Of a DNA stretch of 64,000 bases, positions 8,951 to 57,379 are shown piece after piece. The notes below the pieces were generated by a model, which saw nothing but the letters and a program-made list of their open reading frames with translations, searched no databases and had not been told where the DNA came from. The stretch's first letter is position 1; the number at the start of each line of letters is the position of its first letter. The stretch comes from Isurus oxyrinchus (taxonomy: Eukaryota), in assembly GCA_026770705.1 (NCBI GenBank), contig JANJGN010000033.1, forward strand, positions 15,004,001-15,068,000. Direction: 5' to 3'. The translations under genes and the position numbers were made by a program.

Positions 8951-8997
8951 TGACGTAGCTTCATAACTGATTCTCTCCATTTGGTTATCTTTTACAG

Positions 8998-9929
8998 CCA
9001 ACTTGATAACGATTGTGATACTTTCCCGTAGAAAGTGTGGTCTCTCCACATGTATCACTCGGTACTTGGTGGCCATGGCAGCGGCAGATCTCCTGGTCGT
9101 TATCAATTATGTGATATTGACTCGAATTGTGGAGTCTTCTTTTGCGACTAATTTTATGTTCATTACTCCTGTTTGTTCTTTACAATCTGCCTTAAATTCT
9201 GCTTCCACCGACATCTCTGTTTGGTTTGCAGTCACTTTCACTTTTGATCGCTTTGTTGCCATTTGTTGCCAGAGGCTGAAGACTAAATATTGCACTCAAC
9301 GAACTGCAACCACCGTCATAGGATTTATTTGCCCAATTTTCTGCTTAAAGAACATACCCTGGTACTTTGCATATGAAGCCACATTTATTACTGACAACAC
9401 ACCATGGGGTTGCAATAGAAAAGTTGATTATTATATTGAAAATTCTTGGACAGCGTTTAATTGGATTCACCGATGCTTGACGCCACTGATTCCAGTATTT
9501 TTGATATTGCTCTTTAATGCTCTGACTGTAGGACACATTTTGGCAGGACGTTGGGTAGGGAGCAGTCTGAGGGCCAGGCAGAATTATAGGGATCGAAATG
9601 ATCCAGAGATGAAGAAGCAGAGAAAATCTGTCATCCTGCTCTTTGCTATATCTGGCGAATTCAGGCTTCTCTGGGTAACTTATGTAATATATTTCTTGTT
9701 AATCCGCATTACAAACTATTATTATTCAAAAGGTTTCTATGACCCAATGCATATCGCAGATGAAACCAGTCATATGCTCCTACTTCTGAGCTGCTGCACT
9801 AACACATGTATTTATGCAGTGAGCCAGACTAATTTTAGAGAGCAGTTTACAAATGCGATCAAACATCCAGTGAAAATAGTGCTTACCTTAATAAAACAAA
9901 GAGAGAAAGGGAATGATTACCAATATTAG
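8998..9929 (+). CDS. GPR139-like class A GPCR, main coding exon (exon 2; TM1 second half to C-terminus), open frame
   Basis: Polypyrimidine tract and acceptor 'ttatcttttacag|CC AAC TTG' (phase 1, (A)NLITIVILS). 308-codon ORF with LVAMAAADLL (TM2), CS..FDRFVAIC (TM3), FLILLFN (TM5), LLWVT (TM6) and LLSCCTNTCIY (TM7). Exon 1 not confidently found. Confidence 0.88.
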
Positions 9930-11139: not shown

Positions 11140-11298
11140 TTTAGAACAGAAAGTGCTGGAAAAACTCCGCCTCTTCAGAGCTCCCAAGAAGTGTCATAGA
11201 GATTTGACACGTTATCTCGATATCTCCTGCCACAGATGATGTCAGACCTGATAAGTTTTCCCAGCATTTTCTGTTTTTATTTTAGATTGCCAGAGTCT
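11140..11298 (+). mobile_element. Degenerate Penelope-like pLTR fragment with a partial inverted arm
   Basis: 'aacagaaagtgctggaaaaactc' at the left pairs imperfectly with 'aagttttcccagcattttctgtt' at the right. Same family as 17221-17453. Confidence 0.6.
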
Positions 11299-16403: not shown

Positions 16404-16809
16404 ATATATAGATATATCGACATCGACATAGATGTGGAATCATAGTTATATGTAAATGGGTAATTTTGTTTATTCGTACGTTTATATCTTCATTTTCTCT
16501 GGTTGCATTAGCCCTTTCCTTCCATTGCCTACACATAACAGCCTAAACTTGAATGTTTTGTCTCGCTGTGTCTGGGAATGTGACATTAGCCAGTTAAATT
16601 GCAACGAGTAGTATAACTTATCAATAGGTATTATATTGTTATTTTAACTTTCCGATTACAAATTATACAGGAGAGCACATCTGTGTTGGTCACACCCCAA
16701 GGTTATCCATAGAAAATTTTGCAACCTGATGAAATCTGCTGAGGCCAGGTAAAATATGTAAATAACGTGCCACAAGAAAACAGATACACGTTGTATCAAA
16801 TGTTGGTCT

Positions 16810-17964
16810 TCATTCTGTTTCTCTCTTTATGTCATTCATGTAAACTATATTTTCACTGGATATTTGATCCCAATTACAAGCTGCTCTCTAAATTTAGTCT
16901 GGCTCACTGCATGAATACATGTGTTAGTACAGAAGCTCAGAAGTAGGAGCATATGACTGGTTTGATCTGCAATGTACATTGGATCAAAGAAACCTGTTAA
17001 ATAATAATGTTTTGTGATGCAGATTAATAAGGAATATATTACAAAAGATACACAGAGAAGAATGAAGTAGCTAGATATAGCAAAAAAATAAGATGACAGA
17101 TTTTCTCCGATTATCCATCTCTGGGTCGTTTTGTTCCCTATTATTCCGCATGGTCCTCGGTCTCCTCCAGACCCTAATTACTGCGAAAATGCATCCTACA
17201 GTCAGAGCATTAAACAGCAAGAAAAACAGAATTACCTGGAAAAACTCAGCAGTTCTGGCAGCATCGGCGAAGAAGAAAAGAGTTGATGTTTGGAGTCCTC
17301 ATGACCCTTCAACAGAACTGTTGAAGGGTCATGAGGACTCGAAACATCAAAGCTTTTCTTCTCCGCCGATGCTGCCAGACCTGTTGAGTTTTTCCATGTA
17401 ATTCTGTTTTTGTTTTGGATTTCCAGCATCTGCAGTTTTTTGTTTTTATCTCTGCATTAAACAGCAATGTCAGAAATATTGGACGCAGTGGAGTCAAGCA
17501 CTGGTGGATCAAATTAAATGCAATCCAAGCATTTACAGTGTAAAATTCAGCTTTTCTATTACAAGCCCATCGTATGTTCTCTGCTATAATAATGGCTTCA
17601 TATGCAAAGTAGCATTAACAGAAAAGTGAGAGGATTACTCCTATAACTGTGGCTGCAGTTCTGTCAGTGCAATATTTCGTCTTCAGCTCCTAACAACAAA
17701 TGGCAACAAAGTGATCAAAAGTGAAAGCGAATGTGAACCAGTCAGAAATGTCTGTGGAAGCATGAGTTAAGGCCAATTGTAAAGAACAAACAGGAGTAAT
17801 GAACAGAAAAATTAGTCGGGAAATAAGAGTCCTTAATTCGTGTCAATATCACGTAATTCATAACTACCAGGAAATCTGCTGCTGCCATTGCCATTAAGTA
17901 TCGATGATACAACGGGAGAGACCACACATTCCCTGGGAAAGTATCACAATTGTCATCAGATTCG
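16810..17964 (-). pseudogene. GPR139-like GPCR pseudogene (inverted paralog of 8998-9929)
   Basis: Acceptor 'tctctattacag|CG AAT CTG'. RYLMAMAAADFLVVMNYVILTRI present. Frameshifts near 17903 and 17808, in-frame TAG in ICC*ELKTKYC (~17690), a deletion in TM4 and a 233-bp insertion in TM5. C-terminus SQTKFREQL..IKYPVKI. Confidence 0.92.
17221..17453 (+). mobile_element. Fold-back Penelope-derived element (inverted pLTR pair plus 3' tail) with hammerhead motifs and a 14-bp TSD
   Basis: TSD GCATTAAACAGCAA at 17207-17220 and 17454-17467. Arms ~17222-17315 and 17318-17411 around a 2-nt centre. Unpaired ~42-nt tail. Confidence 0.9.
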
Positions 17965-18672
17965 CTGTAATAGAGAAACATTTGGACAGAATCAGCTCCG
18001 AAGTTACATCAATTATTTAGATTCTAAAACAGCTCACAAGGATTGGAAGGTAGCAAAAATACTTGGTATTCAATTGAGGTGGATCATAGAAAATGAGGAA
18101 CTAGAGATCGGTGATTTAACATCAGTAGCAGAAATTTGCTGGATTCTGTTACGAAGGAAGTTCTAACAGGGCACTTAGAAACTTGCATTACGACTATGTA
18201 GTAAAGTAGCCTTTGTGAAAGTGAAGTCACATTTGCCAAATCTTTGAGAGACAGTTAGGGTACATGAATGTAAAATGTACATCGGGATTTAGGTTTGTTT
18301 ACAGTATTTTATTGGATTTTTCTGTGAAATAAGATGATCTAAGGTACTGCACAGCACGCTAATTTTCTAAGATATTGCCAAGGATTGGAGATTTTTAACA
18401 ACCAGTAAAGAAAAAGTAGCAATACATAGGATATTTTCAGTTTGGCAACAGATATATAGCGGGACACTGCAATGACCACAACAACAAAAAGTGCTGGAAC
18501 ATCTGAGCAAATCTGACAGCACCTGTGAAGTAAAAGACAGAGTTAACGTTTCGAGTCCGTATGAATCTTCTGCAGATAAGGGCAAAAAGCTGCGAATGCT
18601 GGAAATTAAAAACAAAAACAAAAATACCTTGAAAAACTGAACAGGTCTGATAGCATCTGCAGAGAGGAATAC

Positions 18673-18711
18673 AGTTAACATTTCGAGTCCGTATGACTTT
18701 TCAACAGAACT
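18673..18711 (-). ncRNA. Minimal type I hammerhead ribozyme motif (variant core)
   Basis: Minus strand reads AGUU-CUGUUGA-A-AAGUC-AUACG-GACUC-GAAA-UG-UU-AACU. Stem I is AGUU/AACU and stem II is present with one terminal mismatch. Confidence 0.65.
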
Positions 18712-19065
18712 AATGAAAAATAGAAAAGAGGTGAAATATAAGCTTGTTTAAGGGTGGGGGGAGGTGTGAAATGTAGAGCTGGATAGAGGGCAAGTGATAG
18801 GTGGAGATAACCATGAGATGCCATAGACAAAAGGACAAAGAGGTATTGAAGCTGGTGATATTACCTAAGGAATGTGATAATAAATGTACAAATGGAGTTA
18901 GTGGGTTTGGGTGGGGGGAAGGGATCGAAATAGGCTAAAAGGCAGAGGTAAAATAATGGATGGAAATACATTGAAAAATAGTGGAAACAGTTGGGAAAAG
19001 AAAAGTCTATATAAATTATTGGAAAAAAGGGGGATCGGAAAGGGGGTGGAGATGGAGGAGAGAGT

Positions 19066-40310: not shown

Positions 40311-40808
40311 AAAACACAAACAAAAATACCTGGAAAGACTCAACAGTTCTGAAAGCATCTGCGGAGAGGAACACAGTTAACGTTGCGAGTCCGAATGACT
40401 TTTCATGAGAACTAAAGAAAAATAGAAAAGAGGTAAGATGTAATCTGGTTTAAGGTGGGGGGGGGGGGGCGGGGTACGTATAGAGCTTGCGAGAGGGCCT
40501 GTAACAGGTGGAGATTGCCAAAAGATGTCATAGGCAAAAGTACAAAGAGGTGTTGACAGTGACATTAGCTAACATATGTTCTAATGGTGACATTAAGGGT
40601 AGAAAGCAGGACGAGCAAGGTACAGAGAGCCCTAGTGGGAGTGGAGAGGGGGGAAGGGATCGAAATAGGCTGAATGGTAGAGATAAAACAATGGATGGAA
40701 ATACATTTAAAAATAATGGAAATAGGTGGGAAAAGAAAAATACGTATAAATTATTGGAAAAGGGGGGATCGGAAAGGCGATGCGGATGGAGGAGAGAGTT
40801 CATGATCT
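40311..40808 (-). mobile_element. Penelope (Neptune-type) 3' UTR and pLTR fragment, same family as 18585-19075
   Basis: Near-collinear with 18605-19075 (gggaagggatcgaaataggct..gatggaaatacat..ggagagagttcatgatct). Mutated hammerhead at ~40375-40413. Confidence 0.88.
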
Positions 40809-43044: not shown

Positions 43045-43939
43045 TCAATGAAATAATTTGTTATTCAGTGTGAAGGAATATTTCACTCCGTTCCAGAACT
43101 CCGCTCTAAACTTCCTTTGGGTCACTGCATAAATAAAGTGTTTGTACAGCAACTCAGGAGTTGCAGCATAAATCCCATTTCCCAAACAAACATGGGCAGA
43201 GGAACAGAATACCGCAAAAAATCCAATCGCCTTAATGTAGAACAAGCCATAAACACCATCCACAAGAATGTGAAATTCCCTGATATAATAAAGAGCAAGG
43301 TTATAGATTTCCTTCGGCTCTCCATCTCTGAGTCACTGGAACTGTCCCCATGCCTGTGGCCTCGGAGTCTTTTGCAGGTCTTGCTGGCTATTAAAATGTA
43401 ATTGACTGTTAATGTCTTTAACAGTAGAATCAAAACAAATGGAAGAAATGGCGTTACAATGTAATGCAATAATTCAACAATGGACCAGGCCATTGAACGA
43501 GATACACCAGGATCAACACGACAAAACCAGGAACTGTTAAAAAGCCAATATTCAGTAGTATATAAAAAATACCAAAAAATGTTCTTCAAAAGGCTCAGAA
43601 CTGCCACGATTCCTAAAACCACATCCGCTATCTTCTCCTTGCAATATTTAGATTTCAGATTCTGACAACAAATCGCCACAAAGCGATCAAAGGTGAAAGT
43701 GACTGGGAACCAGACCGAGCAGTCTGTGACAGCATAAAGCAAAACAGCATTGCTGTTACACAGGCTAATGTTCCTGAAAAAAATAAATTATTCCCGGTAA
43801 ACAATAGGAATCTGCCTTAGTATAACATCGATTATAACGACCAGTAGATCTGCAAGTGCCATAGCCACCAGATAGCGAGTTACACATTTGGAGAGGCCAT
43901 ACTTCCCCCGACACAGGATGGCAATTGTCACAACATTAA
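43045..43939 (-). pseudogene. GPR139-like GPCR pseudogene (exon 2), two frame lesions
   Basis: Acceptor 'atttttctcag|TT AAT GTT'. In-frame TAA at 43788-43790 (the paralog has CAA) and a 1-nt deletion at ~43136 in TM7. Otherwise collinear with 56202-57097. Confidence 0.92.
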
Positions 43940-44299
43940 CTGAGAAAAATGCTAGGGAAATTATACAGCTCACATGTAGCAATAAAGAAGATTTCTGTAT
44001 TATAGTGAAATATAGAGATAGCTTTGTAACTACAGCAATAACATTCTTCAACATATCCTGAAACGCATCTAAAATATGTTGCTCCATTTTTCATGCATTG
44101 ATAGAAACTTAGTATTTTATAGTGACAGGCAGTTTTACAGATATGGGTCATAACGACATCTATCGATAATAAACAATCAAGCAAGTGAAAAAAACTGTAT
44201 AAAATCACATAGAATAATCTTGCATTCCTTTAAGTGTAGGGATTGAAAGTCCATCTCATTGAGGTGTGTAGGATGATTATAATATAGGTAGAGATCCCT

Positions 44300-46000: not shown

Positions 46001-46520
46001 AATTTTGAATTCTAAAATCATTTCGCCAGGTGGCCTTTTGGTAGAACAGAAATTGATTAGTCCATTGAATATAGACATGATGAAGCTTTCGTCTTGCACC
46101 CACCAGGACATTTCGCAAGAATACCAACATAAGTGAACTCTGATTGATAGAGGCGTTGCCATGAGAAATGCACCAGTGATGGTGAATAACAGTGAACTGC
46201 CAAGCATTTTTATGTTTGGGAAATTTCAGCCAGATATTTCCTATTCCACCAAAGGCACTGGACAAGCTAAACACGAGCAAGATCCCATGGATGTTGAAAG
46301 ACATAATGAGACAACTGCTGAAGGCTAAGAAAGTGGCATACAAAGACAGCAGGAGGGTGCATGATAAGAGGCAATATGAAGATAAGAGGACAGAAATTCT
46401 AAAAATATTAAGAAGGCAAGGAGGATGCATGAACTTATATGAACTTACTGAGGAAAATAAAACAAAATATTAAAACATTTTACGGGCTCATTAATAAAAA
46501 GGACGACTGGGAAGGGATTA

Positions 46521-46736
46521 AAAACAAACAACTGCGAATGCTGGAAATCCAAAACAAAAACAGAATTACCTGGAAAAACTCAGCCGGTCTGGCAGCATTG
46601 GCAGAGAAGAAAAGAGTTGAAGTTTCGAGTCCTCATGACCTCATGAGTTCTGTTGAAGGGTCATAAGGACTCGAAATGTCAACTCTTTTCTTCTCCACCG
46701 ATGTTGCCAGACCTGTTGAATTTTTTCCAGGTAATT
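46521..46736 (-). mobile_element. Fold-back Penelope-derived element with hammerhead motif and a 14-bp direct flank
   Basis: CTGGGAAGGGATTA at 46507-46520 and 46737-46750. Inverted arms ~46561-46640 and ~46659-46739. Tail at 46521-46560. Confidence 0.9.
46645..46685 (+). ncRNA. Minimal type I hammerhead ribozyme motif (CUGUUGA core)
   Basis: GAGUU-CUGUUGA-A-GGGUC-AUAAG-GACUC-GAAA-UG-UC-AACUC. 5-bp stem I, 5-bp stem II, and a GUC cleavage triplet at 46678-46680. Confidence 0.72.
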
Positions 46737-48318
46737 CTGGGAAGGGATTAGTTGCATTAAGGGCTAGACGGGATTATACCAGAGGTAAAGATGGCACAAA
46801 TAACAGCAATTTTATACTTATCAGAAAGATAAAACGGAGAGACATAGCACTGATTGATGACATGATAATGGATAAGTTCATTTAAAATAAACAAAGAGGT
46901 GTAATCAATAAGTATTTCAAACTCAAGGAAGATTAATCTCCTGGTCCAGATGCATTGCACACATACAATCTTAAAGAATCCAGAGAAAGGGTAACAGAGG
47001 AATTGGTACAGAATTTTAGTAATTGGTAATGTCGTGCAAAGCGGGTTGGAATTCATATAACTTAATGCATCTACTTAAGAAGGGGGACAGAACATGCTGC
47101 GAGAATGGTTGATCAGTCACGTTGACATCAGTAGCGGGAAAATATGAAATCCCTTCTACAACCGAGATTAGAATAACTTCTAGACTAGAATATGTATAAA
47201 ACTATGAATAGGAGAAATGGATTTTAAAAGGGAAATTCTTGTTTGACCAATATTATTGTTTTTTTTCATTTTGAGGAGCTAACAGGGTTGAAAATAGTAA
47301 ATGCTGTAGATGTAATTTTCTGGAATTGATTCGATAAGATGCTCTTTATTACACTAATGAAACTTTTGAGAGGATGGGAAGCAACTGGACAACTGGCAAA
47401 ATAGATTTCTGGCTGGTTTCGAGACAGAAAGCAAGGAATGAGATCCAATAATTCTTTAGACTGGGAGAAGATGTTTCAGGAGGATCATTACTGGCACCAC
47501 AGCTGTGAAAACATGAAGGCTGAAATAAAAAACACTATATCGCATGTGTGGATGGCATTAGTTAGGGGGAGGATCATAATGAGTACTGATGAGGATTGCA
47601 ACATTTTACATGAGGATATCAAGAAACTTGCGGAATGAGCAAATAGATGCCAAATGAAGCTCAGCGCAGATCAAATGTGAAGTCACAATTCTTGGCAGTA
47701 AGAAAAGGGAGGTCGCTTGTTCCTCGTTGGAGTAGTGGTTGCTAAGTGAAAATCCTGAGCCAGGACTGTGGAAACCTAACTACACTATTCCATATGGACT
47801 GCAGTCGCTTAAGAAGGCAGATCTTGAGAAGGCACCCCCTCATGGGAAGTTAACATTGGACAATGAATGCTGGCCTAGCCAGCGACGCCCAGAACTCATG
47901 AATGAAATTTTAAAAAGGATGCTTCCCCTCGTCGGAAGAAATCAAGAATTAGAGGCCCTGTTTTAAAACAAGATCACCCCATTTAAAACTGGGACCAAGA
48001 GGAATATCTCCTTGCAGAGGGCCGTTAACCTGTAGAATTCTCTTCGACAGAGGTTGGATCATTGGATATATTCAAGGCTGAGTGATGCAGATTTTTGAAC
48101 AATTGGGAGCCAAGAGCTATGTGTGTGAGGCGGTGGGAGGGAAGGCAGGAAATTCGAGTGAGGCCATGATCTAATTGAATGTTGTAACAGACTCGAAGGG
48201 CCAAATGGCCTACCCTGCTCTTATATATTATGCCTTACATTCCCACGTCTGTATTGGAAGCCATGGTCCAGCCAGTGCTTATTTTTCTCCTTGCCTTTGT
48301 ACTCCTTCTTAATAAATG

Positions 48319-49459: not shown

Positions 49460-50358
49460 TTAATGCGAACGAATTAAGCTGATCACCGTTACAACGGGAT
49501 ATTTCACTCCATTACTCAATTCCTCTCTGAATTTGCTCTGATAACTGCATAGATAAAAGTATTCGTGCAGCAACTGAGGAGCGGCACCATGAAGTCAATT
49601 TCAGGAACAAATGTGGGAAGAGAAATAGTGTATCCCAAGTATCCAATCGTCTCCATATACAGCATACCATAAACACCGCCAAAAAAATAGCATGAAATTC
49701 CCTGATATAACGAACAGTAAAATCATGGATTTCTTTCGGTTCCCCATCTCTGGGTCCATGGGGCTCTCATTGCTACGACTCCAGAACCCCCTTCGGGCCC
49801 TGCTGGCTACTAAAATATTTCTGATTGTCATTACATTGAAGAGTACAATCAAAAGAAATGGCATAAAATACGTTAAAATATGATACATTAATTCAACAAC
49901 GGCCTAGGCGAGTGAACGGGAAAGATAGACCTTCACGAGGCAAAGCCAAGGACTATTTGAAAGCCAACATGTACTTGTACATAAAAAAAATACCAGAAGG
50001 TGTTCTTCAAATAACTGAGCACGGACACTGTTCTGAGGACTACAGTAACTGTTTTCTCAGTGCAATATTTAGACGTTAGCTCCTGAACAAATGGCTTCAG
50101 ATCGATCAAAGGTGAAAGTGGCAGTAAACAGGACAGAACGGTCTGTGACAGCATAAAGCATGACGGCATGGATATTAAAAAATCTGACATTTAACAGAAA
50201 AGCAGTTTCTCCTCGATGAACAATAGGTATCTGCCTCAGTTTCAGATGGAATATTATGACCAGCAGATCCGCCGCAGCTGTGGCCTCCATGCAGCCAGTG
50301 ACACATTTGGAGAAACCACATCTTCCCCTAAAAAGGAACGCAATTGTAACTGCATTAA
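49460..50358 (-). pseudogene. GPR139-like GPCR pseudogene (exon 2), multiple frameshifts
   Basis: Acceptor 'attgcttatag|TT AAT GCA'. Homology is split over ORFs 50069-50395, 49933-50190 and 49601-49888 (RGRCGFSKCVT, TFDRS, SKYCTEKT, DPEMGNRKKSMILLFVISGNF). C-terminus GVKYPVVTVISLIRSH*. Confidence 0.92.
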
Positions 50359-56201: not shown

Positions 56202-57097
56202 TCAGTGAATTAATGCGATCATCCTTGCAAAGGGATACTTCACTCCGTTCATCAACTCATCTCTGAATTTGCTCTGAGTAACTGCATAGATAAACGTGTT
56301 GGTGCAACAACTCAGGAGCTGGAGCATGAAGCCAATTTCAGATACAAAGGTGGGAAGAGGTACTGGAATGCCCAAATAATCCAAGCGTTTCAATATATAA
56401 TAAATCATGAACACTACCCATAAAACCATGAAATTTCCCGATATAACAAATAGTAAAATCATGGACTTCCTTCGGTTAGCCATCTCTGGGTCAGCTGGAC
56501 TGTCCCCATTGTTCCGAAGCTGGAGTCTCCTGCGGGCCTTGTTGGCCACTAAAATGCTCCTGACTGTCAGGGCATTTAGCAGTAGAATCAAAATAAATGG
56601 AATAAACGGCGTTACAATATAATGCATAAATTCAAAGGTGGCCCAGACCAGCGAGCGAGTTACCCCTATTATCACAAGGCAAAACCACGGGCTGTTAGTA
56701 AGCCAATACCTGCTCGTATATAGAAAGAACCAGGGAATGTTTTTCAAAATGCTGACCCCAGTCACTGTTCCCAGCACAATAGTGGCTGTTTTGTCAGTGC
56801 AATACCTAGTTCTTAGCTTCGGGGAACAAATAGCTATAAATCGATCAAATGTAAAAGTGACAGTAAACCATACGGAACAGTCTGTGGCAGCATAAAGCAG
56901 AACAGCATGAATATTGCACAAAGGAATTGAGCGCACAAATCCAGATTGTTCACGATAGGTAATAGGAATTTGCCTTAGTATCAGATCGAAGATAATGACC
57001 ATTAGATCTGCCGCTGCCATGGCTACCAGGTAGCGAGTGACACATTTGGAGAGACCACACTTTCCACGAGACAGGACTGCAATTGTCACCACATTTA
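56202..57097 (-). CDS. GPR139-like class A GPCR, exon 2 (intact)
   Basis: Acceptor 'attgctcttgcag|TA AAT GTG' (phase 1). Open frame with LVAMAAADL, CNIH..FDRFIAIC, PWFC (ECL2), PFILILLLN, VLWVV and LLSCCTNTFIY. Joins exon 1 to give 330 aa. Confidence 0.93.
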
Positions 57098-57379
57098 CTG
57101 CAAGAGCAATTGAGAAAATTATTCAACAAACAACCTGGAATAAGAAATGGTTTGACTGATTGCTAGTAAAATAATGCAGTAGTTTACACAATATGAGCAC
57201 TAATCTCCCTCATGATAAACACGCAATTCATATGCAGCATGCAGATTATCTTTGCATCCATTGATGAAATCTAAATGCTTTACCTGCGATATGGCAACAT
57301 ACAGATACGGGTTGTATTCAAAGTAATCAGAAATGGATCAGAAATAATTGATCAAAGCACATCAAAATAAACTTGCTAG

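Follow-up and report, generated by a model that had tools for sequence, protein, structure and literature searches.

The 233-bp insert at positions 17221-17453 of the window (the whole 64,000-nucleotide stretch of Isurus oxyrinchus DNA analysed here) is, with a probability of roughly 85%, a short piece of a Penelope-like element (PLE), its hammerhead-bearing end, inserted head-to-head and formed anew by the mechanism proposed below. It consists of two copies of the parent element's end that overlap by 2 nt, one covering -31 to +104 on the plus strand and the other -35 to +65 on the minus strand. These element coordinates are relative to the predicted hammerhead cut between GUC and AACU, with 0 being the first base 3' of the cut. 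The tailless arm occupies 17221-17319 on the minus strand (element positions about +63/+65 to -35), and the tail-bearing arm occupies 17318-17453 on the plus strand (the 3' end of the PLE, from -31 to about +104). The two meet at the head-to-head junction AG-AA-CT (17314-17319), where one arm at -35/-34 and its partner at -31/-30 share a 2-nt microhomology. A repeat search finds the 14-bp sequence GCATTAAACAGCAA in exact copies (100%) on the left at 17207-17220 and on the right at 17454-17467, and since a paralogous GPCR gene at 8967-9926 holds this stretch only once, the repeat is a true target-site duplication (TSD), as the preliminary description had claimed. Its account of the palindrome, with arms of about 94 bp, a 2-nt loop and a tail of about 42 nt, also holds up on measurement: the arms (17219-17315 and 17318-17414) are 97 nt long, or 95 nt once the 2 bases common to the TSD are excluded, they are 92% complementary with 2 nt between them, and 39-41 nt remain unpaired as a tail. 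This tail (about 40 nt, 17413-17453, plus strand) spans two putative reverse transcription (RT) start sites at about +66 and +103, each preceded by a GU5-6GU4-5-like run. As RNA, the insert folds at -162.4 kcal/mol (z = -20.7), a value equalled by 0/200 shuffles. The Rfam scan of the insert gave no hammerhead family and only sub-threshold matches to miRNA hairpins, and being sub-threshold these led to rejection of a miRNA reading. A second palindromic copy of the same family lies in the window at 46507-46750 on the minus strand, with another junction, one tail and a 14-bp TSD.

Loci selected with the outer arm and tail frequently extend upstream into a long element, and upstream of the common 3' end these long copies carry an ORF. 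Locus L164 is a partial tandem in which a 5'-truncated upstream copy is followed by a unit of 3,324 bp that holds a frame of 925 aa. This frame matches Pfam's RVT_1 at E 1.3e-5 and GIY-YIG at E 8.8e-4, neither reaching the gathering score, and it has 557 relatives at E<=1e-30, among which PF00078 and PF01541 are present. The full frame did match Pfam, whereas a 313-aa C-terminal piece from locus L048 gave no match. Among named relatives, the parent protein is closest to those of Chiloscyllium punctatum, at 64-69% identity. The translations contain the DKG motif (KPADKGG) and the CCHH motif VYCIRCSQCGLLYIGET with downstream histidines; DKG, and CCHH with two cysteines between GIY and YIG, define the EN+ PLEs (PMC8557442). 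The parent shares further traits of that group: a single ORF with RT and, at its C terminus, GIY-YIG, partial tandems (pLTR), an inverted 5' copy, a one-sided tail and a TSD. Several copies have a CX4CxxC linker (CPRKRCNTC), with P at the second C in L164; a CX2-5CxxC linker between RT and EN marks Neptune/Nematis (PMC8557442). Judged by its sequence, the parent is an abundant RT and GIY-YIG Penelope-like element with a linker of Neptune/Nematis type. Of 30 loci picked at the tail-to-ORF junction, seven (L182, L189, L192, L194, L201, L202 and L206) break off at +222 to +271, three of the seven at +245/+246, and restart at -35 to -190. These are short head-to-tail units with one hammerhead motif apiece, and it is they, and not the palindromes, that resemble non-LTR retrozymes or template jumps. 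In a single case (L059) the tail is followed by a second unit beginning at or beside the predicted hammerhead cut site.

Each arm of the insert carries a hammerhead-like motif. On the minus strand (17281-17319) it is a minimal type I motif with stem I (AGUU/AACU) kept and CAAA in the core (G12>C), and on the plus strand (17318-17352) GAAA is present and stem I is gone, both as first described. The plus-arm stem I is lost on both sides, the 5' strand at the fold and the 3' strand by mutation to AAAG. Both arms read CUGUUGA, so that core position 6 is U, and G16.2>A occurs in each. The core CUGANGA ... GAAA is therefore not present, since U6 is a family-wide character (78,796 exact matches genome-wide against 136 with A6, or 99.8%) and the minus arm adds G12>C. 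Across 125 arms the family shows the features of PLE minimal hammerheads, namely stems I and II, a base between 9 and 10.1, G10.1-C11.1 and a palindromic 15.2-16.2; the 17221-17453 copy departs from these through G16.2>A on both arms. A sister family in the genome often keeps the canonical core among the matches listed, and both A6 and U6 occur among the first 100 of them. A natural A6C variant is active in Mn2+ and mostly inactive in Mg2+, and the accessible text of the same paper contains no A6U variant (PMC7151607). Transcription of either strand yields the complement ahead of the motif, and a hairpin of -162/-155 kcal/mol compares with about -6 kcal/mol for the motif. Because the complement is made first and the hairpin outweighs the motif fold, ambisense ribozyme activity is not expected, which speaks against the suggestion of a retrozyme- or viroid-like RNA with ribozymes on both strands. 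Given the family-wide U6, the further damage in this copy and its burial in the hairpin, the ribozyme is probably dead.

The origin of the palindrome can be judged from its relatives, counted as exact pattern matches across the 5.0-Gb genome. The 33-nt tail word has at least 53,051 matches, the un-inverted continuation 6,660, folds within 30 nt of the AG-AA-CT junction 14,204 strand matches, and the exact junction 1,413. A fold-blind sample was drawn from the first 100 tail matches listed, which carry the exact 33-nt word and lie in the first 5.6 Mb of one contig; 96 were used, and breakpoints were scored against three natural reference copies. A query containing the AG-AA-CT junction returned that junction region in 29/30 loci, and was left out of the fold statistics. 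The 96 loci comprise 55 adjacent inversions, 36 simple truncations and 5 that exceed the fetched DNA. Their 5' ends spread from +46 to -3251, with 30/96 at -26 to -42 and only 1/96 within 5 nt of the hammerhead cut site. The listed matches show a wide variety of junctions, which frequently lie on self-complementary words or contain short templated inserts. Such scattered ends and varied junctions, found by comparing inversion points as the preliminary description had proposed, argue against a discrete family and favour its other option, a recurrent by-product of Penelope insertion. Its view that the element folds at the ribozyme is right as to the motif's 5' edge but not as to the cleavage site, from which the fold lies about 35 nt upstream.

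The palindromic insert was likely made anew in one insertion event, with no palindromic master to be copied. Of the first 30 exact-junction copies listed, 16 carry the tail on the -31 arm and 14 on the -35 arm, and 27 of the 30 have the same base in both arms at the C/T site -27. Over 57 junction copies (one of which, L158, has the junction word within a longer insert), 48 substitutions are mirrored in both arms, while recurrent one-arm differences fall mostly at CpG sites or arm ends and none is fixed. Three of the mirrored haplotypes turn up again at other junctions and in long copies; haplotype and junction are thus not passed on together, and the junction forms repeatedly. Junction, tail side and haplotype assort freely, contrary to what a discrete non-autonomous family would show. 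The idea of a self-propagating palindrome, whose rod-like RNA would carry ribozymes on both strands in the manner of retrozymes or viroids, could draw on the 1,413 copies with one exact junction, on the strong rod fold, on the short tandem one-ribozyme units that the family does form, and on three exact-junction pairs with a common haplotype that also have the same tail side (L061/L079, L073/L088 and L062/L076). It is hardly credible when set against the many junctions, the 16:14 split in tail side, the sharing of haplotypes between junctions, the nature of the one-arm differences, the U6 core, and the order of transcription and strength of the hairpin. Moreover, no tandem repeat of the palindrome occurs in the exact-junction copies, where the TSD abuts both ends. 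It is possible that a minority of palindromes, such as the three haplotype pairs, are re-mobilised, and arm-to-arm gene conversion could also mirror variants. The self-propagating branch of the preliminary description is nonetheless largely refuted, and repeated formation at insertion stays the likely reading.

Several regularities indicate how this may happen. Seventy-two of 73 junction-picked palindromes have one tail (47/47 and 25/26 in the two sets), the remaining one has none, and two tails are never seen. The one-tail rule is not universal beyond short palindromes: the long inverted structures L129, L156 and L186/L187 have tails or ORF continuations at both ends. Arm lengths are matched, both short or both long, in 47/49 inversions (Fisher p = 7e-10), and tailless arms begin at +61 to +73 in 42/49 inverted copies. 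In 22/49 inversions the tailless arm extends beyond the tail arm in the 5' direction, by up to about 1.2 kb, and so is not a copy of the tailed arm. TSDs measure 14 bp in 27/45 copies and 13-15 bp in 39/45, and over the 45 TSDs the two nicks show a weak two-fold symmetric base preference. In seven of the 30 exact-junction copies listed (L062, L067, L077, L080, L081, L085 and L087) the tailless arm starts at +47 to +51 and not at about +66, which may mark a third start site or a preferred trimming point.

We propose that the inverted copy arises by twin priming on one RNA, and give somewhat better than even odds to the wider reading that PLEs build their inverted copy in this way. The endonuclease, probably as a dimer, would nick both target strands 14 nt apart in a symmetric staggered cut. 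Each 3' end would then prime reverse transcription of the same RNA, each half of the dimer using one of two duplicated U-rich start signals about 37 nt apart, one at about +103, which yields the tail, and the other at about +66, which does not. Both cDNAs would extend to the RNA 5' end near -35 to -39, likely a transcription start 29-32 nt past a TATA-like motif in the pLTR, and their two ends would be joined through microhomology or short templated inserts. The hammerhead motif would be a passenger, predicted not to cut in the 17221-17453 copy. The regularities above are observed; the single template RNA, the endonuclease dimer and the joining pathway are inferred. In L1 twin priming both nicked strands also prime cDNA, with joining at microhomologies. 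L1 inverts the upstream part without duplicating it, whereas in the shark PLE model both cDNAs copy the same RNA segment, and an inverted duplication results. For a PLE of Anolis, the protein cleaves and extends both strands in vitro without any need for ribozyme cleavage, it is predicted to be a dimer, and two RT start sites bound the tail, although the start site did not differ between strands in that system (PMC11167929).

The -35 hot spot, at which the further arm ends (-31 to -40) in 23/34 short palindromes, is likely a transcription start, although this step is weaker than the rest of the explanation. The sequence TATATTT lies 28-32 nt before -35 in 104/104 matches and across unlike spacers, with a search pattern that allowed 22-52 nt. 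Such a spacing fits a TATA box and its start site. That TATA-like motif is an imperfect one, in a stretch that also resembles a branch point, a pyrimidine tract and an AG. Among 23 matches that reach far into the ORF from the 5' side, 3 stop at -26 to -55 and 15 run more than 100 nt further upstream; since most long copies thus pass -35, simple run-off at one start fails for them unless tandem transcripts or a template switch are involved. In Drosophila virilis the PLE promoter is described as internal and TATA-less (PMC2377424), and the PLE intron has its 3' end where helix I has its 5' end (PMC4209133). Among the joints listed from runs guessed to be RNA, whose contigs cannot show starts, strand or level, none is a GT-AG joint at the AG before the ribozyme; one CT..AG skip occurs, in the large run X19 only, and neither observation weighs for or against a transcription start.

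Other explanations bear on single steps of this model. The arms might be primed as proposed and -35 be a polymerase barrier or a processing site, such as an RNA structure, a bound protein or a splice acceptor. This is unlikely, and it touches only the start-site step, being compatible with the rest of the explanation. The passage of most long copies beyond -35, the pyrimidine tract and AG kept there in all spacer variants, and the D. virilis intron end would suit it. An independent stall, however, should yield many short-long arm pairs, in conflict with the 47/49 matched ones, bases upstream of the AG that splicing would remove are still present in many ends, and the spacing to the TATA-like motif is constant. 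A different course would dispense with the second priming: one cDNA folds on itself, or an antisense template primes itself, and the second arm is its copy, as was proposed for rotifer PLEs (PMC3846280). Mirrored variants, matched lengths and a single tail would all follow, and junctions do often lie on self-complementary words. It is improbable all the same, because a copy cannot exceed its template and the tailless arm does so in 22/49 inversions, and because the tail is on the later-starting arm in 16/30 exact-junction copies, including the 17221-17453 insert; trimming of the first strand after copying could possibly reconcile it with these arms. That the hot spot reflects self-cleavage of the template by the ribozyme is very improbable, even if the motif has PLE minimal-hammerhead features (PMC4209133) and the sister family often keeps a canonical core. 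Ends would be expected at 0, and only 1/96 tail arms and 2/49 tailless arms end within 5 nt of it. Folds near 0 number 471 strand matches against the 14,204 near -35, the 471-match pattern requiring one arm past the cut site and so missing folds in which both arms stop at 0. Twin priming from a staggered cut remains the preferred reading.

The architecture itself, an inverted copy with a one-sided tail and a TSD, is already published for PLEs. Complex insertions of EN-bearing PLEs typically consist of an inverted 5'-truncated copy, a one-sided tail of 30-40 bp and a TSD (PMC8557442; PMC3846280; PMC2377424), in agreement with the background that the preliminary description had given. They share with the shark insert the head-to-head inverted copy, the tail at one end, the TSD, a palindrome at the junction and partial tandems as pLTRs. 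The shark insert differs in holding only the terminal ~100 and ~135 nt, in folds that cluster at the 5' edge of the ribozyme, in a TSD sharply peaked at 14 bp, and in the single tail of 72/73 palindromes. The Anolis Poseidon element PAc (PMC11167929) is alike in that its two RT start sites bound the tail downstream of a hammerhead. The shark element departs from PAc by its CX4CxxC linker, and its start sites follow U-rich runs and lie just before the ORF start, those of PAc being inside the ORF; the accessible text of that paper does not derive an inverted copy from the two start sites. Metazoan PLE minimal hammerheads have the same short stem I, extra base 9/10.1, G10.1-C11.1 and palindromic 15.2-16.2, and pairs on opposite strands 100-700 bp apart are already on record (PMC4209133). 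The shark family differs from them by U6, and the 17221-17453 copy lacks in addition G12 in its minus arm, stem I in its plus arm and G16.2 in each of them. Animal non-LTR retrozymes are likewise short, non-coding and pLTR-derived, with a type I hammerhead, but they are head-to-tail tandems with ribozymes on one strand (bioRxiv 10.64898/2026.07.22.740005). The shark insert is instead head-to-head, with one motif per strand and a TSD at both ends, and is not composed of head-to-tail units with complete ribozymes. A search by title and abstract start retrieved no paper on palindromes of PLEs in sharks or on twin priming by PLEs; an earlier description in subscription papers, supplements, Repbase or Dfam is possible.

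Taken alone the insert is unremarkable: dead stubs of this kind number in the thousands, and the GPCR copy around it has breaks at other places as well. From its exact ends a testable route emerges in which one RNA is copied from both sides of a cut, and the origin of PLE inverted repeats and one-sided tails has been called unresolved (PMC8557442). The one-tail rule, the matched arms and the symmetric 14-bp target provide sharp predictions for the existing in vitro system, and the U6 core shared by the family offers a natural way to test if PLEs need the ribozyme. If the twin-priming reading is true, the stubs, in their thousands, would mark the transcription start as "strong-stop" products, and tens of thousands of copies would have spread without self-cleavage in a family whose ribozyme core is non-canonical.

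The host is a broken rhodopsin-class GPCR copy on the minus strand (16800-17995), an inverted paralogue of the gene at about 8967-9929, and the insert sits in its LLFNA stretch. The protein of the 8967-9926 gene matches PF00001 (7tm_1), and with it tblastn confirms the reported insertion into a GPCR copy: the minus-strand 7tm_1-like host is 54-65% identical and carries stops and frameshifts at places other than the insert. Related single-exon rhodopsin-class copies are clustered in the window at 8967-9929, 16800-17995, 43137-43946, 49463-50356 and 56202-57122; two of the five have long open frames and three are broken. The 15.7-18.5 kb segment is an inverted duplicate of 8.5-11 kb with about 75% identity. 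Sister PLE families have left older copies, whose hammerhead motifs are variant, at 18478-18576, 18574-19000, 40311-40735 and 11145-11293, the two at 18.5 kb being in tandem on the minus strand.
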